From an uncultured Burkholderiaceae bacterium (GTDB lineage: Bacteria; Pseudomonadota; Gammaproteobacteria; Burkholderiales; Burkholderiaceae): 24,000 bases of DNA. The notes beneath the pieces were generated by a model. The model searched no databases, had not been told where the DNA came from, and was given only the letters and a program-made list of their open reading frames with translations. This document shows positions 2,395 to 17,936 of this stretch, piece by piece; position 1 is the stretch's first letter; every line of letters starts with the position of its first letter. The translations under genes and the position numbers were made by a program. Location: the NCBI GenBank assembly GCA_966212065.1, contig CBIHOQ010000016.1:61550-85549 (forward strand). Reading direction: 5' to 3'.

Positions 2395-3360
2395 TCAGGA
2401 AAGGAGCCTCGCCAGGACGGGCAGATCAACGTTGCCTCCGCTGACGAGCACGCCTATCCTTTTTCCGGAAACCGGGTAGACCTGCTGAAGTGCGGCGGCG
2501 GCGGCGAGGCAACCGGTCGGCTCGACCACGATTTTCATTCGCTGCGCGAAGAACCTCATGGTGTCGATCAACTGGCTGTCTGCCACGGTGACGATGTCGT
2601 CCACGTGGCGCCGGATCACCGCGAAGTTGTGATGCCCGACATGGGTGACCTTGGCGCCATCGGCGATGGTGTCGGGGACCGCGATATGAACGATCTCTCC
2701 TTTGCGCAGCGATTGCTGCCCGTCATTGCCCAACTCGGGTTCCACGCCGATGACCTTGCAGTGCGGGCTGATGCCGGCAGCCGCAAGCGCCGATCCGGCA
2801 AGCAAGCCGCCGCCTCCTAGGCATACCAGCAGCACATCGAGTTCGCCCACCTCTTCGAACAGTTCCAGGGCGGCAGTTCCTTGGCCACAGATCACGTCGG
2901 GGTGATCGTAGGGCGGGATGAGCGTCATGCCTTTCTCTTCGGCCAGGCGGCGGCCGATTTCTTCGCGATTCTCGGTGTATCGGTTGTAGGTAAGAACGTC
3001 GGCACCATAGTCCTTGGTGGCGCGTATCTTCGTTTCCGGCGCATCCTCCGGCATGATGACGGTGGCGGGAATGCCAATCATGCGGGCGGACAAGGCAATC
3101 GCCTGTGCATGATTGCCGGACGAATAAGTCAGCACGCCCTTGCGGCGTTGTTCGACGGAGAAGCGGGCCAGGGCGTTGTAGGCGCCCCGAAACTTGAATG
3201 CACCGATCCGCTGCAAGTTCTCGCACTTGAAGAACAGTTCCGCGCCTGCCATCTCGTTCGCCGTTCTTGATGTCAGGACGGGTGTACGGTATGCCACCCC
3301 TCTGATTCTGTCGGCAGCCTGCTGGATAGCTTGGAATGTCAGATACGCTGAATCGTTCAT
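2395..3360 (-). CDS. PLP-dependent serine/threonine dehydratase / serine racemase-family enzyme (fold type II)
   Basis: 321 aa. It carries the PLP-lysine motif GAFKFRGA, SSGNHAQA and the glycine loop CLGGGGLLAG, and the overall length is typical of the family. It is the first gene of the minus-strand operon, with a LysR gene divergent from it. Confidence 0.85.
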   Translation of the reverse strand: MNDSAYLTFQAIQQAADRIRGVAYRTPVLTSRTANEMAGAELFFKCENLQRIGAFKFRGAYNALARFSVEQRRKGVLTYSSGNHAQAIALSARMIGIPATVIMPEDAPETKIRATKDYGADVLTYNRYTENREEIGRRLAEEKGMTLIPPYDHPDVICGQGTAALELFEEVGELDVLLVCLGGGGLLAGSALAAAGISPHCKVIGVEPELGNDGQQSLRKGEIVHIAVPDTIADGAKVTHVGHHNFAVIRRHVDDIVTVADSQLIDTMRFFAQRMKIVVEPTGCLAAAAALQQVYPVSGKRIGVLVSGGNVDLPVLARLLS

Positions 3361-5643: not shown

Positions 5644-5976
5644 ATGATCGTGACAGTCTTTAGATCGAGGTTGAATGCTGGCGCCCAAGAGGAATACACA
5701 CAGTGGGCGACGCGGATGAGTATCCTGGCCCGCGACGTGCCAGGCTATGTTTCCCACAAGGGCTTCACCGCCGAGGATGGCGAACGTGTAACCATTGTGG
5801 AATTCGAGTCCGAAGAGGCAATGCGCGCCTGGGCAAAGCATCCCGAACACGTCGAAGCCAAGAAAAAAGGGCGTAGCACCTTCTTTGCGGAATACCGGGT
5901 GCAGATCTGCGAGGTGGTGCGTGATACGGCGGATCGCAGCAAGCCTCACCGCGCTGCAAGCAAGGTCTCGAGATGA
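5644..5976 (+). CDS. Antibiotic-biosynthesis-monooxygenase (ABM) domain protein
   Basis: 110 aa. The sequence MIVTVFRSRLNAGAQEEYTQWATRMSILARDVPGYVSHKGFTAEDGERVTIVEFESEEAMRAWAKHPEHVEAKKKG follows the ferredoxin-like ABM pattern. A strong GGAGGA RBS sits 7-12 nt upstream. The last 31 nt overlap the convergent Lrp gene. Confidence 0.8.
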   Translation: MIVTVFRSRLNAGAQEEYTQWATRMSILARDVPGYVSHKGFTAEDGERVTIVEFESEEAMRAWAKHPEHVEAKKKGRSTFFAEYRVQICEVVRDTADRSKPHRAASKVSR

Positions 5977-6437
5977 TAGTGCGTCTTGACGATCGGCGAT
6001 TTGATGATGATGTAGCTGAAGTATTTCTCGATCCCGATGTCACGCTCCAGCAGCCCTTCCATCACGCTCTGATAGTGGGTGACGTTGCGCGTGACCAGTT
6101 TGAGCAGATAGTCGTAGCCGCCCGTCGCGTGGTGGCACTCCATGATCTCGTCGACGCCGCGAATGGCATCGACGAAGCGCGCTAAGTCTTCGCGACGATG
6201 ATCTGCGAGCGTGACCTTGGTAAACACCATCTGGAAGTCACCGAGCTTCTCGATCCGGAGCCGCGCGCCGTAGCCCGCAATGAACCCAGCCTTCTCGAGC
6301 CGCTTGACGCGCGTGAGGCACGGGCTCGCCGAGAGCCCGACGGCGTCGGCCAGTTCCACATTGGTAATGCGGCCGCGCTTCTGCAACTCGGTGAGAATGC
6401 GCAAGTCCATCCGGTCCAACGTGCAATCCGTTCTCAT
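5946..6437 (-). CDS. Lrp/AsnC-family transcriptional regulator
   Basis: The sequence LDRMDLRILTELQKRGRITNVELADAVGLSASPCLTRVKRLEKAGFIAGY is an AsnC-type HTH, followed by a RAM domain. The track ORF starts at 6491. I prefer Met19 (complement of 6435-6437), which is preceded by AAGGAGGAGAGG. Confidence 0.88.
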   Translation of the reverse strand: MRTDCTLDRMDLRILTELQKRGRITNVELADAVGLSASPCLTRVKRLEKAGFIAGYGARLRIEKLGDFQMVFTKVTLADHRREDLARFVDAIRGVDEIMECHHATGGYDYLLKLVTRNVTHYQSVMEGLLERDIGIEKYFSYIIIKSPIVKTHYHLETLLAAR

Positions 6438-6776
6438 CCTCTCCTCCTTCGTCCGGTGAGGTAGCCTCCAGGTGAGCGCTTTCGCGTCCACTTCAATCTA
6501 GATAGCCACCCCACCCCTTAGTACGACGATACGGCGATCTTGCTGTTTGTACGCGGTGTTCTGCACCGTGCGATTTCATACAGCAGGACCTGCCGCGAAT
6601 CTGCCAAAAAACGCTTCGACTTTTGTCTTTTGCACCGATCAATTCGGCATCGGCGCGACGCTTTCCAGATTAAATTTGAAGTACCGACATCGCTATCGGT
6701 GCTTGCGCGAAATGGCTTCCAGCAAGCCCCCCATTCAAGAATCCCTCGGGATTCGTCACTCATCGAGACTGAAGAC

Positions 6777-7445
6777 ATGATCGACTTCGAGCCGAAATTC
6801 ATCACGTTCGATTGCTACGGCACCCTCGTCAATTTCCGTATGGCCGACCTGGCGCGGGACATCTACGGCAACCGCCTTCGCGGCGACGCGATGGACAACT
6901 TCGTCAAGCTGTTCGCCGCCTATCGTCGCGACGAAGTGCTCGGCGCTTGGAAGCCCTTCCGCGAGGTCGTCATCCATGCCGTGCGCCGCACCTGCGAGCG
7001 CACCGGCGTGCCGTTCATCGAAGCCGAGGCCGAACAGTTTTACCTGGCCGTGCCGACCTGGGGCCCGCACCCGGACGTCCCGGAAGGGCTCTCCCGCCTC
7101 GCGAAGAAATACAAGCTGGTCGGGCTGAGCAACGCGGACAACGCGCAAATCATGAGCAATATCGAGAAGCTCGGCGCGCCGTTCCATGCCGTCATCACGG
7201 CCGAAGACGCCGGCGCCTATAAGCCGCGCATGCAAGGCTTCGAATACATGTTCAAGAAGCTCGACGTGCAGCCTCACGAAATCCTCCACGTTTCGTCGAG
7301 CCCGCGCTACGACCTGATGACCGCGCACGACCTCGGCATTGTCCACAAGGCTCACGTGCTCCGCGGCCATGAACCGGAAGCGCCGGAATATGGGTATACG
7401 CCCGTCAGAAGCATCATCGAGCTGGCCGAACAGCTCGGCTTGTAA
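6777..7445 (+). CDS. HAD-superfamily hydrolase, type II haloacid dehalogenase-like
   Basis: HAD motif I FDCYGTL immediately follows the start MIDFEPKFITFDCYGTLVNF. Further motifs are GLSNADN, AYKP and HVSSSPRYDLMTAHDLG. The track ORF (6540..7445) is over-extended across the AT-rich intergenic region; with ATG 6777 the protein is 222 aa. Confidence 0.82.
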   Translation: MIDFEPKFITFDCYGTLVNFRMADLARDIYGNRLRGDAMDNFVKLFAAYRRDEVLGAWKPFREVVIHAVRRTCERTGVPFIEAEAEQFYLAVPTWGPHPDVPEGLSRLAKKYKLVGLSNADNAQIMSNIEKLGAPFHAVITAEDAGAYKPRMQGFEYMFKKLDVQPHEILHVSSSPRYDLMTAHDLGIVHKAHVLRGHEPEAPEYGYTPVRSIIELAEQLGL

Positions 7446-7640
7446 GCCATTCGCGCCGCCCTGGCCCCCGCGTTCGACGCCGGCCAGGCGCGCACATCGC
7501 GCTGTTCGACTGACGCCTCGATTCAGGCCGATGGCGCCGCGTAACCCTATCGATGACAGCGCCGATACCTAGTGCCGGGGTTGCCTCGATCTTCCACAGT
7601 GGTGCACGCATGCCGGTACTCCAACCTAACTTGCGGAAAC

Positions 7641-7653
7641 ATTGTAGAACAAT
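7641..7653. promoter_or_regulatory. GntR/FadR-type operator candidate 1 (ATTGT-AGA-ACAAT)
   Basis: Perfect 5-bp inverted repeat with a 3-nt spacer. TTGTAGAACAA fits the FadR-subfamily consensus T-N-GT-N3-AC-N-A. It lies 99 nt upstream of ATG 7752. Confidence 0.5.
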
Positions 7654-7705
7654 AACAGGGAAACAAGCCCGGAGAAAGGCGTCGTTTTCGGCTTTACATT
7701 CCACG

Positions 7706-7718
7706 ATTGTCCGACAAT
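7706..7718. promoter_or_regulatory. GntR/FadR-type operator candidate 2 (ATTGT-CCG-ACAAT)
   Basis: Same half-sites as site 1, and TTGTCCGACAA also fits T-N-GT-N3-AC-N-A. It lies 34 nt upstream of ATG 7752. It contains the TTG (7707) that the ORF track used as a start. Confidence 0.5.
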
Positions 7719-7751
7719 AATAGCGCCTACCATCGCTTCCCCCGCTCGTCC

Positions 7752-10301
7752 ATGTCCACACATTCCACGCTTAGCGTCGCATCCTCTCCGCAGGCAACGG
7801 GGCTCAATGCCCTGTTAACTAGCGGCCTGTCGGTCAGCTTTCCCCGTCTGGATACCGCTGATGCGATTGCGATCACACGCCGCGTTTACGGCATAGATGG
7901 GGCAGCTACGAGGTTTTCGACCGAGAAGGACGACACCTTTCGTATCGACGCCTGCGACGGCGCGCGGTACGTCTTGAAGATCTCGAACCCCGGCGAGACA
8001 GCTGAAGAGCTCGACTTGCAGGTGGCCGCGATGCGGCACGTCGCGCTCGTCGCGCCCCGGTTGCCGGTGTCGCGCGTGCTGCCAAGTATTGATGGACAAT
8101 TTATCGTGCCGCTCGCGTTAGCCTCATCCACGCAGCCGCACCGCACGGCGAGGCTCTACAGCTACCTCGAAGGCACGCCGCTCGACACACTGCACCCTAG
8201 CGCACGCAATCGATACGAGATCGGTGAGGTGCTGGCGCAACTGCGCCTGGCCATGGCCGACTTCCGGCATCCGCACGAGCACCGGGTGCTGGCTTGGGAC
8301 GTGAAGCACTTGGCGAGTCTCGCGGGGTTGCAGGCCCATATCGCCGACCCGTTGCACCGCTCGCTGATCGAGCAGGCATTCGCGCGCTTTGCGGCGATCG
8401 AACCGGCCTTACGCCGCTGTCCGACGCAAGTCGTGCACAACGACTTCAACCGCTCGAACATCGTCGCCAACGCAGGCGGCCCGAACTTCGTCAGCGGCAT
8501 CATCGACTTTGGCGACACCGTGCATACGGCGGTAGCCATCGATGTCGCCACGGCGGTCATGAATCAATTCCCGCTCGACTTCGACGCCGACGGCTCGCAC
8601 GACCTGTTTGTCGAGGCGCGCGACCTGCTGCGCGGCTATCTCGCGCATGCCGAGCTCAGCGCTGACGAACTGCTGCTGATTCCGCACCTGGCGATGGCGC
8701 GCGTCGCGGCGCGGGCCTTACTGACTTCATGGCGCGCCATGCTGTTTCCGGAAAACGAGGCCTACATCCTGCGTTTCACTCGGCCGGGATGGGAGCATTT
8801 GCGCTGGTTCATGCAACGCGACCATGACACCGTTTCCCATGCCTTGCTTGAGTTCGTCCGCCGACCCACTCGCTCCACCTCTCTTGAGCCCTCTATGAAC
8901 GCCACCCCCACGCCCATGCCGCAGCCGCCCGTCCTCAATCAAGCCGTCGATACCGGCAAACCCGCCGACAGCCTGCGCGGCGACATGCCGAACGGCTTCA
9001 ATCCCTCGGAGATCTCCCACCTCGACGCCGCCACGCAACAACACATCGCGCGCCGCCTACGGCTGCTCAGTCCGTCGTATCGCTTGTTTTACGCCGAGCC
9101 GGTAAAGATTGTGCGCGGCGAGAAGGTCTATCTGTACGACGATGAGGGCAACGACTATCTCGACGCCTACAACAATGTCGTCTGCGTCGGGCATGCCAAT
9201 CCGCGCATTGTCGATGCTGTTACCCGTCAGCTCTCGACACTCTGCACGCATACGCGCTACATGCAGGAGCCGATCCTCGACTATGCAGAGGACCTGCTCT
9301 CGACCTTCAACACGTCGATCCGCGAAGGGCAGATGATGTTCACCTGCACGGGTTCCGAGGCCAACGACCTGGCCATGCGCATCGCGATGCAGTACACCGG
9401 CAAGACAGGCGTGATCGTGACCAGCGAGGCCTATCACGGCAACTCTCACATCACCTCGAGTTTTTCGCCGTCGCTGGGCCGCAAGGCCTTGCTGGGCCCC
9501 TACGTGCGCACGGTACCGGCCCCCGACTCATACCGGATGACGCCGTCCGAGATCGGTCAGCGCATGGCCGAGCAAGTCGCGCTGCAGATCGAGGACATCC
9601 GCCGTCACGGCGGCGGCCTGGCCGCCTTCATCGCCGATTCTTTCTTCTCGTCGGATGGCGTCTTCGCGCACCCGACCGATGTGCTGGCGCCGGTGGCCGA
9701 GGTGGTGCGCCGCGCCGGCGGACTGTTCATCGCGGATGAGGTGCAATCGGGCTTCGGGCGCGGCGGTACCCACATGTGGGGGCACGAGCGCCACGGTGTC
9801 GTGCCCGATATCGTCACGCTGGGCAAGCCGATGGGCAACGGCTACCCGGTAGCGGGTCTGGTCGCGCGCCCCGAGGTCGTCGCCGGCTTTGGCCGGGACA
9901 TGCGCTACTTCAACACCTTCGGCGGCAATTCGGTGGCGGTCGCTGCCGCGCAGGCTACGCTCGACGTGCTGCGCGACGACTATGTGCTCGATAACGTGCA
10001 GCGGGTCGGCGCGATCATGCTCGAGGGGTTGAATGCGCTGGCAAAGAAATACGAATGCATCGGCGATGTGCGCGGCACCGGTCTGTATTTCGGCGTCGAG
10101 ATGGTGCGTGATCGCGCGAAGAAGGACACCGACATCGCGACGGCGCTCAAGGTCGTTAATGGCCTGCGCCAGCGGCGCGTGCTGATTTCGGCAACGGGGC
10201 CGGACGCGAGCGTGCTGAAGATCCGACCGCCGCTGGTGTTCGCGGCCAAGGACGCGGACCGCTTGCTGACGGAACTGGACGCCGTGCTCGCCTCGCTCTA
10301 G
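7752..10301 (+). CDS. Bifunctional fusion: APH-family (hydroxylysine-kinase / homoserine-kinase II-like) phosphotransferase plus a class-III aminotransferase-fold PLP enzyme (phospho-lyase-like)
   Basis: All residue numbers use track-ORF numbering (start 7707). The N-terminal domain (residues ~40-385) has the kinase catalytic loop VHNDFNRSN (243-251) and IIDFGD (265-270). A Pro/Thr-rich linker follows (~386-440). The C-terminal domain has YNNVVCVGHANPRIV, GSEANDLAMRIA, ADEVQSGFGRGG and the PLP-lysine motif DIVTLGKPMGNGYPVAG (AAG at 9825-9827). I prefer the ATG at 7752 over the TTG at 7707. Confidence 0.88.
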   Translation: MSTHSTLSVASSPQATGLNALLTSGLSVSFPRLDTADAIAITRRVYGIDGAATRFSTEKDDTFRIDACDGARYVLKISNPGETAEELDLQVAAMRHVALVAPRLPVSRVLPSIDGQFIVPLALASSTQPHRTARLYSYLEGTPLDTLHPSARNRYEIGEVLAQLRLAMADFRHPHEHRVLAWDVKHLASLAGLQAHIADPLHRSLIEQAFARFAAIEPALRRCPTQVVHNDFNRSNIVANAGGPNFVSGIIDFGDTVHTAVAIDVATAVMNQFPLDFDADGSHDLFVEARDLLRGYLAHAELSADELLLIPHLAMARVAARALLTSWRAMLFPENEAYILRFTRPGWEHLRWFMQRDHDTVSHALLEFVRRPTRSTSLEPSMNATPTPMPQPPVLNQAVDTGKPADSLRGDMPNGFNPSEISHLDAATQQHIARRLRLLSPSYRLFYAEPVKIVRGEKVYLYDDEGNDYLDAYNNVVCVGHANPRIVDAVTRQLSTLCTHTRYMQEPILDYAEDLLSTFNTSIREGQMMFTCTGSEANDLAMRIAMQYTGKTGVIVTSEAYHGNSHITSSFSPSLGRKALLGPYVRTVPAPDSYRMTPSEIGQRMAEQVALQIEDIRRHGGGLAAFIADSFFSSDGVFAHPTDVLAPVAEVVRRAGGLFIADEVQSGFGRGGTHMWGHERHGVVPDIVTLGKPMGNGYPVAGLVARPEVVAGFGRDMRYFNTFGGNSVAVAAAQATLDVLRDDYVLDNVQRVGAIMLEGLNALAKKYECIGDVRGTGLYFGVEMVRDRAKKDTDIATALKVVNGLRQRRVLISATGPDASVLKIRPPLVFAAKDADRLLTELDAVLASL

Positions 10302-10404: not shown

Positions 10405-11094
10405 ATGAGTGCACCGATTCCTAAACCGGCGAGCGTCGCCGAGGCGGCCAAGCCCACAGCCGTTCAAGCGCTGGCCGAGAAGCTCAAGACCCGCATCTTG
10501 AACGGCGATTTCGCGCCGGGCGAGTACCTGCGCGACATCAAGATGGCCGAGCAGTACGAAGTGTCGCGCAGCACGTTCCGCACGGCCGCGCAGTTGCTGG
10601 TCGCGCGCCGCATCCTGCGCCAAGTGCCCAATCGCGGGTTCTTCGTGCCGGAGTTCTCGGCCGACGACATCGTCGACGTAACGCGTTTTCGGGGCGTGCT
10701 CGAAGTCGAGGCGGTGAAGATGATCGTGCATACCGGGCACATTCCGGTCGAGGCGATCAATGCGGTCGAGCGGCTGCGGGATGCCCCCGACGACGCGCCG
10801 GTCTCGTTCATGGTGGAGGGGGATCGCGACTTTCATCGCGCGATTGTGGCGGCCAGCGGCAGCGAGCGGCTGCAACGCAGCTATGAAGCGATCGAGAGCG
10901 AGATCGAATTGCTGCTGGTGCAGCGCCAGCATTTCTACGAACACCCGAAGGAAATCGTGCGAGAGCACGAGCACTTGATTGCCTGCCTGAAGACGCGCGA
11001 CTTCGCGGCCGCGCGCGATGCCTTCCTCGAACACTGGGATGATCTGCGCGTCAGCCTGCTGCGCGTCGAGGCGAAGAAGGTGCGGGCGCGCTGA
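10405..11094 (+). CDS. GntR-family transcriptional regulator (FadR subfamily, FCD C-terminal domain)
   Basis: wHTH: GEYLRDIKMAEQYEVSRSTFRTAAQLLVARRILRQVPNRGFFV. The helical C-terminal domain contains DRDFHRAIV and REHEHL His residues, as in FCD domains. The start is uncertain (GTG 10381 or ATG 10405), and neither has a clear SD. Confidence 0.85.
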   Translation: MSAPIPKPASVAEAAKPTAVQALAEKLKTRILNGDFAPGEYLRDIKMAEQYEVSRSTFRTAAQLLVARRILRQVPNRGFFVPEFSADDIVDVTRFRGVLEVEAVKMIVHTGHIPVEAINAVERLRDAPDDAPVSFMVEGDRDFHRAIVAASGSERLQRSYEAIESEIELLLVQRQHFYEHPKEIVREHEHLIACLKTRDFAAARDAFLEHWDDLRVSLLRVEAKKVRAR

Positions 11095-11125: not shown

Positions 11126-11617
11126 CTACTGAATGACCGTTCGTCCCGTGTGTCCGGAGGTCCAGCGGCGGCGCAGCCAGTGATCCACCGACAGCGTGCC
11201 CGCCCCGCGGCAGAGCAGCACGAGCAGCATCGCCGCCCACTGAATATGGGTCGGCCATGCCTGCGGGTAGACGAAGATCTCGATCACCGACGTCATGCCG
11301 AGCAGCACTAACGCCGCGGGCCGGGTCCCGAGCCCCAGCACGAGCAGAATGGGCGTGCTCAGTTCGATCGAGGTGCCGATATAAGCGGCGATCTCCGGCG
11401 GCAGCAGCGGCACCTTGTATTCATCGCGAAACAGCGCGAGCGCGGCGTCCCAGTTCGCGAGCTTGGCCATGGCGGAATTCCAGAAGACCGTCGCCACCGC
11501 GAGCCGCAGCGGGATCGCGAGCAGCCAATACGGCACTCGCTCTAGCCGCTTTGCGACGCGCAACAGCCGCGAGGGAACGGACGACGCATGGCGGTTGGTG
11601 GGTGTTAGGTCAGGCAT
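11126..11617 (-). CDS. DoxX-family membrane protein (fourth gene of the bufferin/gig-type operon)
   Basis: 163 aa from the ATG (complement of 11615-11617): MPDLTPTNRHASS...VPYWLLAIPLRLAVATVFWNSAMAKLANW...ELSTPILLVLGLGTRPAALVLLGMTSVIEIFVYPQAW, with four hydrophobic segments. The track ORF (to 11965) is over-extended in an Arg-rich frame across the upstream gene. It overlaps the upstream gene by 13 nt. Confidence 0.8.
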   Translation of the reverse strand: MPDLTPTNRHASSVPSRLLRVAKRLERVPYWLLAIPLRLAVATVFWNSAMAKLANWDAALALFRDEYKVPLLPPEIAAYIGTSIELSTPILLVLGLGTRPAALVLLGMTSVIEIFVYPQAWPTHIQWAAMLLVLLCRGAGTLSVDHWLRRRWTSGHTGRTVIQ

Positions 11618-12423
11618 GGCGATGATCCTCCAGAAGGAGATCCGGCGTCGGGCACCGACTCGGCATCGGCAAAGCATGCGCGCCCGAGCAGTAAGGCCAG
11701 AAGAGCGTACCCGTCCGTGCTTAGAGCGACAGACAGCGCGTCGCGAATCGCTTCGCCGGCAAAGAGTGCAGCAGCGATCCGGTACTCGCCATCGCCCAAG
11801 CGAAGGACCTCGACTCCTTCGGCCGTACGTTGCACGAGCAGGTGCACCGGACCATCGTCGAGTCGGATCGAATGCATCGCCGGGGCGTCCTGCTCGAGCA
11901 CCGCGCGCCAGATCGCATCGGCCGGAAAGGCGAAATGCGCGAGCCGTACCGCCGGATGCGGACACAGGCGCAGCGCGCCGAGCGCATCATCGTCAAGCAA
12001 TGCCAGACGTGGAAGGTCGAGTGTCGGGAGGGCCGGTGCATGCAACACGCTATTCACCTGCCACTCGAGATACGCGACACCGGCGAGATATGGCACCGAT
12101 GCTGTCTCCGGGAGTTGCGCGAGAAATGCGGGAAACGTCGCGCCATACTCGTCCAGCCATGCGCTATCCGGCGGCGATGCGTCGATGAAGCGTCGGACGG
12201 CTCCTTCAAAGCACTCCGCTCCAACGAGACGTTGCACGGCCGGAAACGCCAGGCGAATCGCATTCACCAGCACGCCGGTCGCCGTGTTGCGATAGATCGA
12301 CAGACGCGCAACGGGCGCGAGGCCGTCAGCCACGATCCACGCCTCGGCGTCTCCCCCCGCGCCGCGCAGATTTTCTCGAACCGCTCGCTGCAATTCAGCC
12401 AGCGTGGATGCGGGCGGGTTCAT
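11605..12423 (-). CDS. bufC: DUF2063-family protein (BufC/GigB-like partner of the DUF692 enzyme)
   Basis: The sequence LAELQRAVRENLRG...RLSIYRNTATGVLVNAIRLAFPAVQRLVGAECFEGAVRRFIDASPPDSAWLDEYGATFPAFLAQ...YLAGVAYLEWQVNSVLHAP carries the SIYRN / LxxxFP / YLxDxAxLEW pattern that I recognise for DUF2063. The start is at 12423 (MNPPAST) or 12453, overlapping the upstream gene by 29 or 59 nt. Confidence 0.78.
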   Translation of the reverse strand: MNPPASTLAELQRAVRENLRGAGGDAEAWIVADGLAPVARLSIYRNTATGVLVNAIRLAFPAVQRLVGAECFEGAVRRFIDASPPDSAWLDEYGATFPAFLAQLPETASVPYLAGVAYLEWQVNSVLHAPALPTLDLPRLALLDDDALGALRLCPHPAVRLAHFAFPADAIWRAVLEQDAPAMHSIRLDDGPVHLLVQRTAEGVEVLRLGDGEYRIAAALFAGEAIRDALSVALSTDGYALLALLLGRACFADAESVPDAGSPSGGSSPCLT

Positions 12424-13285
12424 ATCGAGCCGTCTCCAGTGCAAATTCTGCAATTGCCGCTTCCTGCATCAAGGTTTCCAGCGCCGGCACATCGGTGTCC
12501 CATTCGATCAGTGTCGGTACGGCGCCGAAACGGCGCAGCGCTTCGCGATACAGGGTCCAGACCTCGGGCGCGACGCGAGAGCCGTGATCGTCGATGCGCA
12601 GCGTGTGCCCGTCCTCGAACTGCCTGACGCTGTGACCCGCAAGATGAATCTCGCCGATCGACGCCGGCGGCAGCGCAGCGAGATAGGCCCGCGGATCCCA
12701 GCCGTGATTGCAGGCGCTGACGTAGATGTTGTTGACATCGCAAAGCAGGCCGCATCCTGTTCGTCGCGTGATTTCCGCGAGGAATTCCCATTCCGGAATG
12801 GTCGAGTGGACAAACTGCAGGTACGTGGACGGGTTTTCCACCAGAATCGGCCGCCCGAGTGCGTCCTGAACCTGGTCCATATGTCGGCACATGACGTCCA
12901 GCGCTTCCTCGGTCATCGGCAATGGCAGCAGATCGGCCAGATAGGTTCCGCCCACCGCACTCCACGCCACGTGCTCGGACACCAGATCGGGCTCGAAACG
13001 TCGCACCGTTGCGCATATGCGAGCCAGATGCGCGGCGTCCAGCCCATCGGGGCTGCCGAGGGACAGGCCCACGCCATGCAGCGACAGCGGGTAGTCGCGG
13101 CGGATGGCGTCCAGATATTGCGACGCCGTTCCGCCCCCCATGTAGTTCTCGGTGTGTACCTCGAACCAAGGGACAGCCGGCTTCTCATCAAGCACTGCCT
13201 GATGGTGCCGGAAGCGCAGGCCAACGCCCGCCCGCGCGGGGACTGGCCGTGGCGCCGCGCAATGCGATGGCGCGGATACGTTCAT
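12395..13285 (-). CDS. bufB: DUF692 / MbnB-like multinuclear non-heme iron oxidative enzyme (MNIO), BufB/GigA-like
   Basis: 296 aa from the ATG (complement of 13283-13285). Motifs: GVGLRFRHH, WFEVHTENYM, HGVGLSLGS, SEHVAWS, ILVENPSTY, LCDVNNIYVSA, HLAGH, LIEWDTD. These form the TIM-barrel metal-ligand pattern of DUF692. The track ORF (to 13456) is over-extended into the precursor gene. Confidence 0.88.
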   Translation of the reverse strand: MNVSAPSHCAAPRPVPARAGVGLRFRHHQAVLDEKPAVPWFEVHTENYMGGGTASQYLDAIRRDYPLSLHGVGLSLGSPDGLDAAHLARICATVRRFEPDLVSEHVAWSAVGGTYLADLLPLPMTEEALDVMCRHMDQVQDALGRPILVENPSTYLQFVHSTIPEWEFLAEITRRTGCGLLCDVNNIYVSACNHGWDPRAYLAALPPASIGEIHLAGHSVRQFEDGHTLRIDDHGSRVAPEVWTLYREALRRFGAVPTLIEWDTDVPALETLMQEAAIAEFALETARYEPARIHAG

Positions 13286-13299
13286 GGCGGAACCCGTCT

Positions 13300-13620
13300 T
13301 CAGCTGGCCTTGAGTTTGCCGCCCGCGATCTTGCTGCAGTCGCCGGCCGGCAGCAGCACGAAGGACTTCGCATCGCGAGCCTGCGTGGACTGGCCAGCGC
13401 ACGAATGGGCCCCTTCGGCGCAGTCGTTCTTGGCTACCGCGTTCACGCCGTAGCATTTTTCGAGGTGGTTTTGCGCCATCCTGGCCATGTTGTCTTTGAC
13501 GATCTGGGGCATATTGCTCATATCCTTCATGCCCTGCGCTTGCCCCGGGACGGCTTGCATGGCGAGCGCGAGCCCGACGGCGGCGGATAGCGAGGAAATG
13601 GCCGAAGCGGATTTGCTCAT
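13300..13620 (-). CDS. bufA: Secreted DUF2282 Cys-containing RiPP precursor (bufferin BufA1 / GigP-like)
   Basis: 106 aa from the ATG (complement of 13618-13620), preceded by an AGGAGA RBS. It has a Sec-type signal (MSKSASAISSLSAAVGLALAMQA), a Met-rich tract (MKDMSNMPQIVKDNMARMAQNH) and a core EKCYGVNAVAKNDCAEGAHSCAGQSTQARDAKSFVLLPAGDCSKIAGG. The four Cys are at residues 56, 67, 74 and 95. Only 14 nt separate it from the DUF692 gene. Confidence 0.85.
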   Translation of the reverse strand: MSKSASAISSLSAAVGLALAMQAVPGQAQGMKDMSNMPQIVKDNMARMAQNHLEKCYGVNAVAKNDCAEGAHSCAGQSTQARDAKSFVLLPAGDCSKIAGGKLKAS

Positions 13621-13669
13621 GGTGTGTTCTCCTGACGTGGGATCGCCGATGCGCGACCTTGTCAAAAAA

Positions 13670-13695
13670 TTCGCTCCGTCGCAGCCAAAGGTTAC
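13670..13695 (-). promoter_or_regulatory. ECF (SigF/ECF16-type) promoter candidate GTAACC-N16-CGAA driving the precursor operon
   Basis: The minus strand reads GTAACC tttggctgcgacggag CGAA. GTAACC is the complement of 13690-13695, the spacer is exactly 16 nt, and CGAA is the complement of 13670-13673. The element ends 49 nt upstream of the bufA ATG. As I recall it, this matches the promoter consensus published for Caulobacter SigF. Confidence 0.6.
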
Positions 13696-13757
13696 TCAGC
13701 GTGCCGAAAATTTTTTGCGCCGCTTTTTGCGCTGCGTCTTAAGAGGATCGATGGGTC

Positions 13758-14411
13758 ATGACTGACGAGAAAGGCCATCGGCGACGCCGCATCCATCTGG
13801 TCCGGCCGGCACCCGGACCGGAACGCGGCGTCGGCGCGCAGGCCGCAACCCGGGAGGACGGATCGCCCGACTGGTCGATGCTGATGGCATGTGCGCAGAT
13901 CGGCGACAAGGACGCGTACCGGCGCTTGCTCGAGAGCATCGCGCCGTACCTGAGGCGCCTCGCTGCGCGCCGCGGCGTGCATCCGGATGCCGTCGAAGAC
14001 GTCGTTCAGGACATTCTCGCGACGATCCACCAGGTGCGTCATACGTATGCGCCCGAGCGGCCGTTCGGGCCCTGGCTGGTGTCGATCGCGAGCCGGCGCA
14101 TCGTCGATGCATTGCGGCGGCAGGGGCGCGCGGTATCGCGCGAAGTGCCGCTCGATCCGGAACATGAAACCTTGCAGGGTGACGGAGCGAATCTTATGGA
14201 AGAAGCGGCGGATGCGCGCGTGCTGCGCGAAGTGCTCGCCCAGTTACCGCCAGGTCAGCGCGAGGCGATCCGGATGCTGAAGCTCGAGGAGATGTCGTTG
14301 AAGGAAGCGGCCGTGGCGACCGGCATGACCCTAGGCGCGTTGAAGGCCGCGGTCCATCGCGGGCTCAAGGCGTTGCGCAGGTTGTTGGAAAAGCAGGGGA
14401 ACCGGCAATGA
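13758..14411 (+). CDS. ECF-type RNA polymerase sigma-70 factor (SigF/RpoQ-like)
   Basis: Region 2: DAYRRLLESIAPYLRRLAARRGVHPDAVEDVVQDILATIHQVRHTY...FGPWLVSIASRRIVDALRR. Region 4: LPPGQREAIRMLKLEEMSLKEAAVATGMTLGALKAAVHRGLKALRRLL. An AAGAGGA RBS ends 10 nt upstream of ATG 13758. An alternative internal start at 13878 would remove a 40-aa N-terminal extension. Confidence 0.88.
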   Translation: MTDEKGHRRRRIHLVRPAPGPERGVGAQAATREDGSPDWSMLMACAQIGDKDAYRRLLESIAPYLRRLAARRGVHPDAVEDVVQDILATIHQVRHTYAPERPFGPWLVSIASRRIVDALRRQGRAVSREVPLDPEHETLQGDGANLMEEAADARVLREVLAQLPPGQREAIRMLKLEEMSLKEAAVATGMTLGALKAAVHRGLKALRRLLEKQGNRQ

Positions 14412-15067
14412 GGCGTTCGACGTCCGAACTGATCGAATCGCTGGTGGCCGACAGTGCGCCGGTGCGTCCGCTGCGTCGCCCGCTTTGGCGGGCGACGGGC
14501 TGGCTGATGTTTGCGGCGCTGCTGCTGCTATCCGTCGCCGTCGCCCAGGGCTTGCGCCCGGATTTGCCGCTCAAGCTGCACGAGCGCGTGTTCCTCACGG
14601 GTGTCGTGACTGCCGCGGCAACGGGCGGCCTGGCCGCCGTCGCCGCGTTTATCGCCAGCGTACCGGGGCGCTCGCTGCGCTGGTTGTTGCTGCCGCTACC
14701 GGCGCTGCTCGTTTGGACGTCCATGATCGGCTACGGTTGCCTGACGAACTGGATCGAGATCGGTCCCGACGGTATCTCGCCCGGCGAAACCGCGCGCTGC
14801 TTCGCGACGCTCGTGCTGACCAGTGTGCCGCTTTCGCTGACGTTGTTAGTCATGCTGCGCCATGTCGCACGCCTCGCGCCCGTGCCGGTGGCGATGACGG
14901 GGGGGCTTGCCGTCGCCGCGATGACCGCCGTGGCGTTGTCGCTGTTCCATCCTCTCGACGCGACGGTAATGATCCTTGCGTGGAATCTCGGTTTGACGGT
15001 CGTCCTGTTGATCGGTAGCGCATGCTACGGCCCGCGATTGTTCCACTGGGTCGAATCGCATTCGTGA
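14408..15067 (+). CDS. nrsF: DUF1109 / NrsF-family membrane anti-sigma factor
   Basis: 219 aa, starting in an ATGA overlap with the sigma gene stop. The N-terminus MRRSTSELIESLVADSAPVRPL resembles the DUF1109 start, and about six hydrophobic TM segments follow. Cys residues sit in predicted loops (GYGCLTNW, ETARCF). Confidence 0.78.
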   Translation: MRRSTSELIESLVADSAPVRPLRRPLWRATGWLMFAALLLLSVAVAQGLRPDLPLKLHERVFLTGVVTAAATGGLAAVAAFIASVPGRSLRWLLLPLPALLVWTSMIGYGCLTNWIEIGPDGISPGETARCFATLVLTSVPLSLTLLVMLRHVARLAPVPVAMTGGLAVAAMTAVALSLFHPLDATVMILAWNLGLTVVLLIGSACYGPRLFHWVESHS

Positions 15068-15101: not shown

Positions 15102-15137
15102 TGTAAAGTACGCTACCTATGTGTAGTGTATTTTACA
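15102..15137. promoter_or_regulatory. Imperfect 15-bp inverted repeat in the AT-rich nrsF-chrB gap (candidate ChrB operator or RNA hairpin)
   Basis: TGTAAAGTACGCTAC (15102-15116), a 6-nt spacer (CTATGT), then GTAGTGTATTTTACA (15123-15137). 13 of 15 positions are complementary. The right arm ends on the A of the preferred chrB ATG. Confidence 0.35.
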
Positions 15138-16117
15138 TGACGACATTAACCACCTGGTCTGTCCTCGTCCTGACGTTCCCAACCGAGAACGCCACTGCGC
15201 GCATGCGGGCATGGCGGGCGCTGAAAGCGAAGGGGTGCGCCGTCCTGCGTGACGGCATCTATCTATTGCCGCATACCGTCGAGCGTGAGGACATGCTGCG
15301 CGAACTCGCTGCCAGCATCGATGATGCCGGCGGTACCGCGCATCTGCTGCGGGCGCAAAGTCTGAACTCGTCGCAGGAAGCAGACTTTCGCGCACTGTTC
15401 GATCGGAACGACGATTACGCGACCTTTGTCTCGGCGTTGGGAATCGCGCGGAAAACGCTGGGAGGCCAGTCACCGGCAGAGGTCACCCGCCTGCTGCGTC
15501 GCCTGCGCAAGGACTATGACGCGATCCGGCTGATCGACTATTTCCCGGGCGCGGCATCGACCGAGGCCGAAGTGGCCTGGGAAGACTTCCTGGCGCTCGC
15601 GGATACGGTCCTGTCGCCGGGCGAGCCGCATGCGGCTGAGCGGGTTATCCGGCGCCTGCAGCGCGACGACTATCAGGCACGGACGTGGGCGACCCGGCAA
15701 CGGCTATGGGTCGATCGCGCCGCGAGCGCCTGGCTGATCCGCCGCTTCATCGATCCGCAGGCGCGCTTCGTGTGGCTCGTGTCGCCGAAGGCCTGCCCGC
15801 AGGAGGCGCTTGGCTTCGACTTCGACGGCGCCGCCTTTACGCATGTGGGCGAGCGCGTGACGTTCGAGGTGCTGGTCGTGAGCTTCGGTCTCGATGACGA
15901 CGCGGCGCTTCTTCGGCTCGGCGAAATGGTGCATGCGTTGGATGTCGGCGGCACGCCGGTGCCCGAGGCGATTGGTTTTGAGGCGGTGATGGCCGGCATG
16001 CGGCAACGCGCGTTGGACGACGATCAACTGCTCGAGGAGATAGGTCGCGTGTTGGATTCAATCTACGCACACTTTGCGGTGAGCACAAAAAACGGCAACG
16101 CAGGGGGCCGGCCATGA
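15137..16117 (+). CDS. chrB: Chromate resistance regulator/sensor protein ChrB
   Basis: N-terminal WSVLVLTFPTENATARMRAWRALKAKGCAVLRDGIYLLP (ChrB N-domain pattern). C-terminal WVDRAASAWLIRRFIDPQARFVWL...GFDFDGAAFTHVGERVTFEVL (ChrB C-domain pattern). It lies directly upstream of chrA, with an ATGA overlap. The start is ATG 15137 or 15119. Confidence 0.85.
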   Translation: MTTLTTWSVLVLTFPTENATARMRAWRALKAKGCAVLRDGIYLLPHTVEREDMLRELAASIDDAGGTAHLLRAQSLNSSQEADFRALFDRNDDYATFVSALGIARKTLGGQSPAEVTRLLRRLRKDYDAIRLIDYFPGAASTEAEVAWEDFLALADTVLSPGEPHAAERVIRRLQRDDYQARTWATRQRLWVDRAASAWLIRRFIDPQARFVWLVSPKACPQEALGFDFDGAAFTHVGERVTFEVLVVSFGLDDDAALLRLGEMVHALDVGGTPVPEAIGFEAVMAGMRQRALDDDQLLEEIGRVLDSIYAHFAVSTKNGNAGGRP

Positions 16118-17298
16118 ACACCACGACGGCGACCCAACCCGGCTACACGCTCGGCCAGCTGGCCCTTTACATGCTGCGGCTCGGAGCCTTCGGTTTTGGC
16201 GGCCCGGTGGCGCTCGTCGGCTATATGCACCGCGACCTCGTCGAGCGCCGGGGCTGGATCAGCGAACAGGACTACAAGGAGGGGCTGGCGCTGGCTCAAA
16301 TGATGCCTGGGCCGCTTGCCGCGCAACTCGGCATTTATCTCGGTTACGTACATTACCGCGTTGTTGGCGCGACGCTGGCGAGTATCGCCTTTGTATTGCC
16401 TTCATTCCTGATGGTCGTCGCGCTGGGTTGGGCCTATGCCCGGTTTGGCGGCCTGCCCTGGATGCAGGCGGTCTTCTACGGCGTCGGTGCCGCGGTGGTC
16501 GGAATCATTGCGATGAGCGCCTACAAGCTGACTAGAAAGACCGTCGGCACAGACAGGCTGCTGTGGGCGATATTCCTGACGCTCGCGGCCGTGACCGTTG
16601 CCACCGAATCCGAAATCGCGTGGCTGTTTATCGCGGGGGGCCTGCTCAACTGGTTCTGGCGGGCGCCGCCGAAATGGCTACACAAGGGCGGACTGAATGC
16701 GCTTGCGATGACGCAGACAGCGGCTTTGAGCGGCGTTTTCAGCGGTATCGACCTATCTTTGCTCGGCCAGATCGGCGCTTTTTTCGCCAAGGCCGGCGCG
16801 TTTGTGTTCGGCTCGGGACTCGCGATCGTGCCGTTTCTCTACGGTGGCGTGGTGACCGAACACCACTGGCTCAACGACAAGCAATTCGTCGATGCCGTGG
16901 CTGTGGCGATGATCACACCGGGACCGGTCGTCATCACGGTCGGGTTCATCGGTTATCTCGTCGCCGGATTTTCGGGGGCCTGCGTCGCCGCGCTCGGCAC
17001 CTTCCTGCCTTGCTATCTGTTCACGGTGCTGCCGGCACCGTACTTCAAGAAATACGGCAGGCTGCCCGCCGTCAAAGCGTTCGTCGACGGCATCACGGCT
17101 GCGGCGGTCGGGGCCATTACCGGCTCAGTGATTGTCATCGCACGAAGGTCCATCGTCGACTGGCCGACCATCGCACTCGTCCTTGTGACGGTCGTGCTGC
17201 TCTGGCGCTTCAAGAAACTCCAGGAGCCGGTGATCGTCGTCGCGGCGGCCCTGTTCGGTCTTGTTGTCTATCCGCTCATTCATTCTCACGCTATCTAA
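16114..17298 (+). CDS. chrA: Chromate ion transporter ChrA (CHR family)
   Basis: 394 aa, with the duplicated CHR-domain architecture. First half: FGGPVALVGYMHRDLVERRGWISEQDYKEGLALAQMMPGPLAAQL. Second half: VFGSGLAIVPFLYGGVVTEHHWLNDKQFVDAVAVAMITPGPVVITVGFIGY. Confidence 0.92.
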   Translation: MNTTTATQPGYTLGQLALYMLRLGAFGFGGPVALVGYMHRDLVERRGWISEQDYKEGLALAQMMPGPLAAQLGIYLGYVHYRVVGATLASIAFVLPSFLMVVALGWAYARFGGLPWMQAVFYGVGAAVVGIIAMSAYKLTRKTVGTDRLLWAIFLTLAAVTVATESEIAWLFIAGGLLNWFWRAPPKWLHKGGLNALAMTQTAALSGVFSGIDLSLLGQIGAFFAKAGAFVFGSGLAIVPFLYGGVVTEHHWLNDKQFVDAVAVAMITPGPVVITVGFIGYLVAGFSGACVAALGTFLPCYLFTVLPAPYFKKYGRLPAVKAFVDGITAAAVGAITGSVIVIARRSIVDWPTIALVLVTVVLLWRFKKLQEPVIVVAAALFGLVVYPLIHSHAI

Positions 17299-17327
17299 AG
17301 GCACGCGCGTGCGCGCAATTTGCAGCA

Positions 17328-17936
17328 ATGAACACACGTGAGGAAGGCCGCACCGCTTCATTGGCGGACCGGATGTCGCGTTGGGTATTGCCGGCCGGCG
17401 CCGACAGCGCAGCACGGTTGCTGCTGGTAAGTCGCGGACTGCGCGGTTTCTGCGATGGATTCATCGCGGTTCTGCTGCCGGCATATCTGCTCGCGCTTGG
17501 GTTAGGACAGGTCAGCGTCGGCCTGATCAGCACCGCGACGCTTATCGGCTCCGCCGTGGCGACGATAGCGGTCGGTGCCTTTGCCAATCGTTTCACGGCG
17601 CGCCGGATGTTCGTTTTTGCCGCCGCATTGATGATCGCCACCGGACTCGGGTTTAGCGGGTTTTCGTCGTTCCTGCCGATCCTGATCGTGGCCTTCGTGG
17701 GTACGCTCAATCCGAGCTCAGGCGACGTCAGCCTCTTTCTTCCCCTGGAGCAATCACGCCTTGCCGAAATGGCGGCCGGCGAAGCGCGAACGGCATTGTT
17801 TGCGCGCTACAGCCTGATCGGCGCGATGTCGGCAGCGCTCGGTTCGCTCGCCGCGGGCGTGCCCGCGTGGCTGGTAACGCATACAGGCATGCCGGAGCTA
17901 TCCGGATGGGATGGCCTACGCGCCCGATGTGCATAA
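17328..17936 (+). pseudogene. MFS transporter remnant (N-terminal six-TM half only, ~202 codons)
   Basis: The sequence MNTREEG...LLLVSRGLRGFCDGFIAVLLPAYLLALGLGQVSVGLISTATLIGSAVATIAVGAFANRF...LIVAFVGTLNPSSGDVSLFLPLEQSRLAE...RTALFARYSLIGAMSAALGSLAAG matches the first half of ~400-aa MFS proteins. The frame stops at 17936, and the following DNA encodes an unrelated beta-propeller. The track's 457-aa ORF (from 16563) is an out-of-frame extension across chrA. Confidence 0.6.

Follow-up and report, generated by a model that had tools for sequence, protein, structure and literature searches.

What does a bacterium do with a protein that carries a small-molecule kinase at one end and an aminotransferase-fold enzyme at the other, and how does such a protein arise? 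The question is raised by a gene of an uncultured Burkholderiaceae bacterium, found in a stretch of 24,000 nucleotides of contig CBIHOQ010000016.1 (positions 61,550 to 85,549, assembly GCA_966212065.1). The whole stretch is called the window below, and positions refer to it. The gene is a single open frame on the plus strand at 7752-10301 and encodes 849 residues from the ATG at 7752. It was assigned as a fused kinase/phospho-lyase-type gene from the open reading frame, Pfam and PDB matches and contigs assembled from sequencing runs. The product is probably a two-enzyme polypeptide, which would phosphorylate a 1,2-amino alcohol with adenosine triphosphate (ATP) and then eliminate phosphate and ammonia by means of pyridoxal phosphate (PLP).

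Two enzyme domains in one reading frame

Two Pfam domains were found in the protein, APH (PF01636) at residues 60-283 (E 3e-26) and Aminotran_3 (PF00202) at residues 451-846 (E 1.5e-74). The open frame and these matches confirm the original prediction of a one-polypeptide fusion of an APH-family kinase with a class-III aminotransferase-fold domain, and all the motifs quoted in that prediction, i.e. HNDFNRSN, IIDFGD, NVVCVGHANP (residues 475-484) and TLGKPMGNGYP, were located. The frame, which ends with the stop at 10301, could begin at either a TTG (7707) or the ATG (7752). The ATG is regarded as the start because relatives align from residue 1 and because the TTG, which was rejected, lies inside the second of two operator-like dyads and inside the -10 element of the only promoter-like site.

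The kinase part (residues 1-366, 7752-8849, plus strand) corresponds to a separate APH gene of 365-367 residues in relatives. With 93 bits against PF01636 over residues 60-283 (cutoff 23.2) it belongs to the APH family, and its catalytic set is complete. On the plus strand it comprises the beta-3 lysine in the ATP-binding motif YVLK (residues 73-76, 7968-7979), the HxDxxxxN catalytic loop HNDFNRSN (residues 229-236, 8436-8459) and the DFG-like metal-binding aspartate in the Mg-binding motif IIDFGD (residues 250-255, 8499-8516). The best NCBIfam matches of the kinase half were PRK06148 (201 bits) and PRK06149 (152 bits), followed by the alternative homoserine kinase (66 bits), and its sole PDB relative was the ThrB2-type homoserine kinase 2ppq (E 4e-8). 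The nearest ESM Atlas clusters of the N-terminal domain carry the automatic name 'hydroxylysine kinase family', which is a lead only. The intact motifs and the matches to the kinase ends of PRK06148 and PRK06149 bear out the earlier description of this domain as an APH-family kinase, and it is of the APH-fold small-molecule type. The ratio of nonsynonymous to synonymous substitution rates (dN/dS), calculated against four relatives, lies between 0.14 and 0.20 in the kinase and between 0.07 and 0.09 in the lyase, indicating purifying selection on both.

The PLP part (residues 382-849, 8895-10301, plus strand) begins at the ATG used by the separate 466-residue gene of relatives, and its folded class-III domain starts near residue 430. 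Membership of the class-III fold is clear from the PF00202 score of 251.5 bits against a cutoff of 30.5. The C-terminal 430 residues scored 337 bits with 5g4i, the bacterial phospho-lyase A1RDF1, over residues 430-849, and 332 bits with 6tor, human ETNPPL, an ethanolamine-phosphate phospho-lyase, whereas every other solved chain of the fold class reached at most 164 bits. Both alignments run end to end and include the Schiff-base lysine as well as the GSEAN, DEVQ.GFGR and GKPMGNG motifs, which in the window lie on the plus strand as GSEAND (9351-9368), DEVQSGFGR (9735-9761) and TLGKPMGNGYP (residues 689-699, 9816-9848). Within the last of these, K692 (TLGKPMG) is aligned with the lysine of 5g4i and 6tor, and D662 in DEVQ is the aspartate for the pyridine nitrogen. 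By sequence, the domain thus falls in the phospho-lyase subgroup (ETNPPL, PHYKPL, A1RDF1), and the suggestion that it resembles phospho-lyases and not transaminases was upheld.

It could still be argued that the PLP domain is a conventional keto-acid-dependent omega-transaminase and that the kinase serves another substrate, as the Pfam and NCBIfam names are all 'aminotransferase' and the conserved arginine of class III is present in DVRGTGL. We regard this as unlikely. None of the solved transaminases attains half the bit score of the two phospho-lyases, and the NCBIfam transaminase equivalogs all stay below their cutoffs on the domain. In addition, pairing with an APH-fold kinase is universal among the loci examined: in the window the two enzymes are fused, and in every examined locus showing both genes a kinase homologue directly precedes the lyase homologue, an adjacency that spans Burkholderiaceae, Pseudomonas, Alphaproteobacteria and Actinomycetota. 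Less probable again, and very much so, is that the module serves phosphonate catabolism with a PbfA-like ammonia-lyase for hydroxy-aminophosphonates. The model of PbfA, the (R)-1-hydroxy-2-aminoethylphosphonate ammonia-lyase (NF049939), does match at 211 bits, and the best NCBIfam match of the GntR regulator encoded after the fusion is the phosphonate-associated PhnR of Burkholderia with 68 bits. However, these scores are far under the cutoffs of 525 and 271 bits, respectively, and the domain was not accepted as a PbfA. Moreover, PbfA requires no kinase (PMC8154272), no phn genes were seen within the window, and the neighbouring HAD hydrolase is of the TIGR01428 dehalogenase type, with no phosphonatase model among its NCBIfam matches.

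For the kinase and phospho-lyase pair the following course of reaction is proposed. The APH-fold N-terminal domain would transfer phosphate from ATP to the hydroxyl group of a 1,2-amino alcohol. The class-III-fold PLP domain would then bind the free amine as an aldimine and take the neighbouring proton, after which phosphate would be expelled from the adjacent carbon to give an enamine. The enamine would hydrolyse to an aldehyde or oxo-acid and ammonia, and no amino acceptor would be required.

How the two genes were joined

The origin of the fusion can be read from its close relatives. In Paraburkholderia dipogonis the order of genes is an AsnC regulator (on the minus strand), the HAD hydrolase, the APH kinase (365 residues) and the class-III enzyme (466 residues). 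The kinase ends there with '...ALL' and TAG, and a spacer of 42 nucleotides in the same frame leads to the ATG of the lyase. The window has GAG at 8850-8852 where split relatives have TAG, and four codons on, at 8862-8864, it has CGA, whereas TGA is present in Caballeronia sp. LjRoot29 and in the metagenomic relative P0008. Identity to the fusion is 92 % for LjRoot29, taken over the two domains, and 97 % for P0008, taken over the lyase. The former ATG of the lyase persists in the window at 8895 as Met382. The enzymes form one polypeptide because the stop codon of the kinase was lost and the spacer happened to be in frame. By DNA alignment to relatives, the 15-codon linker (8850-8894, plus strand) thus consists of the old stop codon of the kinase and the in-frame sequence between the two genes. 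This linker evolves faster than both domains, and after it comes the N-terminal tail of the lyase, which is naturally rich in proline and threonine.

As the source genome was assembled from a metagenome and is a draft (105 contigs, 5.25 Mb, completeness 99.9 %), the junction was compared with contigs assembled from three metagenome runs, representing three samples of one study. Relatives of this genome from the same genus carry the name Trinickia sp. Two of the run contigs, X1 (depth 81) and X2 (depth 23), had 0 differences to the window over 8500-9400, and the third, X3, had 0 differences over 8500-9056. In a draft of 105 contigs a long frame could be an error of sequencing or assembly, or a pseudogene in decay, but here this is hardly credible. 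The junction was identical in contigs from all three runs, at depths from 11 to 81, and cultured isolates as well as independent metagenomes contain the same fused frame, so that assembly error was rejected. The low dN/dS of both halves speaks against a pseudogene.

A strong match was found in 31 of 299 species genomes of the family, and the frame was uninterrupted only in the genome of the window. In a survey of 79 named loci, 74 could be scored for the fused or split state, and 70 of these were split. The four fused loci were those of P. polaris RP-4-7, P. phytofirmans RL17-379-BIF-B, Burkholderia sp. OK233 and, independently, Streptomyces endophyticus. Several metagenomic relatives with 82-93 % identity are fused as well. 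Among the best 120 protein matches there were many proteins of 466 residues, which align with no more than the C-terminal 52-55 % of the query, at 79-96 % identity. In a tree of kinase and lyase without the linker, rooted on a paralogous module, the split forms make up a well-supported crown, and the fused forms are arranged as a grade beneath it. The approximately unbiased (AU) test rejects one clade of all stop-lost forms (p = 0.00025), and a single, unreversed origin of fusion was rejected on this basis. At least three changes of state, by fusion or by fission, are therefore required. The fusion is a loss of a stop codon specific to a lineage, in a family where the state flips among close relatives. 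Every fused form of this clade retains the internal methionine of the lyase, so the lyase may additionally be produced separately from its own start.

The join is most likely near-neutral rather than adaptive, because in close relatives a pair of adjacent genes provides for both steps. The opposite view, that the fused state provides a fixed 1:1 stoichiometry or channelling of the phospho-intermediate and that the frame is kept by selection, is possible but rather doubtful. Fused forms are indeed found in several lineages at 82-93 % identity (P0003-P0007, P. polaris, the P. phytofirmans strain and Burkholderia sp. OK233), changes of linker length in fused forms remain in frame, and fused relatives are common in metagenomes, with 70 bi-domain and 27 tri-domain proteins among the best 120 matches of a search that is biased by length. 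On the other hand, the nearest relatives LjRoot29 and P0008 have the TGA in the linker and yet both of their frames are open and constrained. The preponderance of split loci and the retention of the lyase ATG in all fused forms of this clade also count against a functional role of the fusion, a GC-rich spacer of 15 codons is fairly often open by chance, and no interface between the domains was predicted.

The surrounding module and its regulators

DNA homology to relatives spans from ~5940 to ~11105, and the flanks differ between genomes. The left edge of this module is formed by an AsnC/Lrp-family regulator (5946-6491, minus strand; Pfam HTH_24, AsnC_trans_reg and HTH_AsnC-type), which is divergent from the HAD gene and adjoins HAD, kinase and lyase also in relatives, with 69-84 % identity (tblastn). 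The right edge is a GntR/FCD-family regulator (10405-11094, plus strand; Pfam GntR and FCD), for which the start was taken from the 225-234-residue gene calls of relatives, and which is 89-91 % identical in the closest loci. AsnC regulator, HAD hydrolase, kinase-lyase fusion and GntR/FCD regulator form a conserved four-part unit. The module is 85-89 % identical at the DNA level to loci of Paraburkholderia, Caballeronia and Burkholderia sp. OK233, while the flanking genes differ. This suggests that the four-gene module has moved between genera.

The HAD-superfamily type II hydrolase (6777-7445, plus strand, 222 residues, motif FDCYGT) is of the dehalogenase or C-N hydrolase type. It scores 172 bits against TIGR01428 (haloacid dehalogenase type II, cutoff 125), and its best PDB matches are the (S)-2-haloacid dehalogenase 8hp5 (105 bits) and the L-azetidine-2-carboxylate hydrolase 3smv (92 bits). 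HAD phosphatases typically have a second aspartate as general acid, in DxDx(T/V). A role as phosphatase or phosphonatase was rejected for this protein, as its D-C-Y-G-T motif is without the second aspartate and its family matches are of the dehalogenase type. Of the 79 named loci, 24 have a HAD homologue beside the kinase-lyase pair, and its cluster also takes in Pseudomonas loci; in Burkholderiaceae the combination of HAD with the pair exists in two paralogous arrangements.

The commonest neighbour of the kinase-lyase pair overall is an oxidoreductase of the DAO family, dependent on flavin adenine dinucleotide (FAD), which was present in 29 loci. In the closest relatives (L051, L052, L053 and L091, ~1547-2832) a DAO-family gene of ~425 residues is located between HAD and kinase, divergent from the kinase and sharing the operator region. 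About 1.26 kb containing this gene is missing in the window, with the breakpoint near 7571-7577, and also in the metagenomic locus L022. The FAD oxidoreductase has been deleted from the module of the window.

Upstream of the fusion gene there are two operator-like dyads, the perfect dyad ATTGTAGAACAAT at 7641-7653 and a second one, ATTGTCCGACAAT, at 7706-7718, both recognised by sequence as a pair of TTGT-N3-ACAA sites. The second dyad overlaps the -10 element of a sigma-70-like promoter, TTTACA-17-AATAAT (7693-7721, plus strand), which agrees with the consensus at 10 of 12 positions; it is a consensus match only, and by chance alone the scanned region should contain 1.4 such matches. The paired sites were present upstream of the kinase in all fetched loci that have the GntR gene and show that region, and absent from the fetched loci without a GntR gene. 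This strict co-occurrence favours GntR as the cognate regulator, in line with the earlier proposal that the fusion gene is followed by a GntR regulator of its own. The GntR/FCD protein probably represses expression through the two dyads at the promoter. Dyads also adjoin the standalone GntR-HAD pairs. Such second GntR and HAD pairs, with ATTGT-N3-ACAAT dyads and no kinase-lyase between them, were observed in L031 (genome G099, 407-2397) and L033 (genome G186, 15948-17606), and are 65-72 % and 52-53 % identical to the window proteins. In G218 and G265 the same arrangement of GntR, HAD and dyads encloses a paralogous kinase-lyase pair.

Outside the module, the window contains several other gene groups. 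A PLP-dependent enzyme (2395-3360, minus strand) scores as a threo-3-hydroxy-L-aspartate ammonia-lyase equivalog (NCBIfam 558 bits vs 452), and adjoins an HcnB/OoxA-like flavoprotein (627-2003) and a LysR regulator. On the other side of the module, 11126-15067 (minus strand) is a bufferin/gig-type operon for a ribosomally synthesised and post-translationally modified peptide (RiPP), with an MbnB/DUF692 enzyme, DUF2063 and DoxX. Its precursor is a DUF2282 protein (13300-13620, PF10048, E 3e-20). The operon is divergent from a pair of extracytoplasmic function (ECF) sigma factor and NrsF anti-sigma factor, and a ChrB-ChrA chromate resistance pair (15119-17298, plus strand) is located directly 3' of the sigma factor/NrsF pair.

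Related systems and candidate substrates

Fusions of a kinase with a class-III enzyme are an established architecture in bacteria, represented by the NCBIfam models PRK06148 and PRK06149, and the window protein is an ordinary member of this architecture in a bi-domain form of separate origin. It shares with PRK06148 the order of kinase first and PLP enzyme last, residues 29-363 matching model positions 7-334 and residues 425-847 matching 582-1009. It was not accepted as a member of either model, as it reaches 669 bits against a cutoff of 1128 for PRK06148 and 505 against 973 for PRK06149, and matches in two end stretches only. PRK06148 and PRK06149 have a central Peptidase_M23 domain, whereas in the window protein Pfam finds no PF01551. 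Furthermore, their linker is long established, while the join in the window is an independent and recent read-through of a 15-codon spacer.

The PDB title of 5g4i/5g4j is 'PHOSPHOLYASE / putative aminotransferase class III protein'. These entries are the A1RDF1 enzyme, which is reported to act on O-phosphoethanolamine (Cuetos et al. 2016). A1RDF1 is the best solved relative of the lyase half, with the catalytic lysine, GKPMGNG, DEVQSGFGR and GSEAN all aligned, but it is a stand-alone protein of 446 residues with histidine in GNG(H/Y)P, while the window protein is fused and has tyrosine. The vertebrate enzymes HYKK with PHYKPL, and ETNPPL (6tor), have the same PLP fold and subgroup and the same logic of kinase and lyase. 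They are encoded by separate genes in animals, unlike the fused pair of the window, and the likeness is one of PDB bit scores and cluster names. In Rhodococcus and Mycobacterium, a microcompartment locus for aminoacetone and 1-amino-2-propanol contains an APH-fold kinase and a class-III-fold phospho-lyase for amino alcohol disposal. The same pairing is seen in the window, but without shell, dehydrogenase or aldehyde-handling genes, and with different regulators and a different partner in the HAD hydrolase. Bacterial kinase/phospho-lyase proteins are said to have been the clue that revealed human ETNPPL and PHYKPL, and it was reportedly from bi- and tri-functional bacterial fusions that Veiga-da-Cunha et al. 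2012 (J Biol Chem 287:7246) were led to the function of AGXT2L1/2. That work is cited in a paragraph of PMC12138971 on gene fusion as a functional guide. The literature search gave no substrate report for any bacterial fusion, and no paper on a characterised one.

Some observations weigh against a plain phosphorylation and elimination by the window protein. The histidine in GNG(H)P of both solved phospho-lyases is a tyrosine in the window, and there is no transporter or aldehyde dehydrogenase inside this module. A plain two-step route also does not account for what the conserved HAD hydrolase, and in relatives the FAD oxidoreductase, contribute. Prediction of a complex between the two domains gave no confident interface (ipSAE 0.00 in three runs), although with this tool such a result is not evidence against binding. 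In favour of the proposed route, an aldehyde dehydrogenase gene is found directly upstream of a 56 %-identical fusion, and in 8 of the 79 named loci.

The substrate is probably a compound that also has a carboxylate, and 5-hydroxylysine, 4-amino-3-hydroxybutyrate and isoserine are candidates. AsnC and FCD-GntR families typically sense amino acids and carboxylates. Because of the AsnC and FCD-GntR regulators, the cluster names that refer to hydroxylysine kinase, the DAO genes, which in some relatives are pipecolate-oxidase-like, and the aldehyde dehydrogenase and hydroxyproline-catabolism genes beside a 56 %-identical fusion, we lean towards such an amino-hydroxy acid rather than plain ethanolamine. 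A single substrate could not be assigned from gene context, as the neighbours differ by lineage and give no one answer; they include DAO, HAD, GntR, aldehyde dehydrogenase, M20 peptidase, arginase-family, hydantoinase and hydroxyproline genes. Fusions that are 56 % identical were observed in other contexts in L026 (10622-14454) and L025 (995-7993). One of these is beside hydantoinase A/B-type genes. The other comes directly after the aldehyde dehydrogenase, and its cluster, with proline-racemase-like, dihydrodipicolinate synthase (DHDPS)-like and amine-oxidase genes, resembles hydroxyproline catabolism. In view of these contexts the kinase-lyase family likely serves several substrates.

The set found in plant- and soil-associated Burkholderiaceae and in Pseudomonas, i.e. 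HAD hydrolase, DAO-family FAD amine oxidoreductase, kinase, phospho-lyase and FCD-GntR with paired operators, could conceivably constitute an undescribed catabolic or detoxifying route. In such a route the HAD enzyme would first hydrolyse a 2-substituted amino acid, either halogenated or a small-ring imino acid, to an amino-hydroxy acid, which would then lose its nitrogen through phosphorylation and elimination instead of transamination. L-Azetidine-2-carboxylate hydrolase, which is among the best PDB matches of the HAD protein, yields an amino-hydroxy acid (PMC8016842). This scheme is speculative, and we consider it rather improbable.

The locus provides a compact natural case of gene fusion and fission, in which two point mutations in an in-frame spacer of 15 codons decide between one protein and two, and in which fused and split states coexist among relatives that are more than 90 % identical. 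The regulated four-gene module is also present in the cultured P. polaris, P. phytofirmans RL17-379-BIF-B, Burkholderia sp. OK233 and Caballeronia sp. LjRoot29, and genetics in these strains could reveal the substrate.

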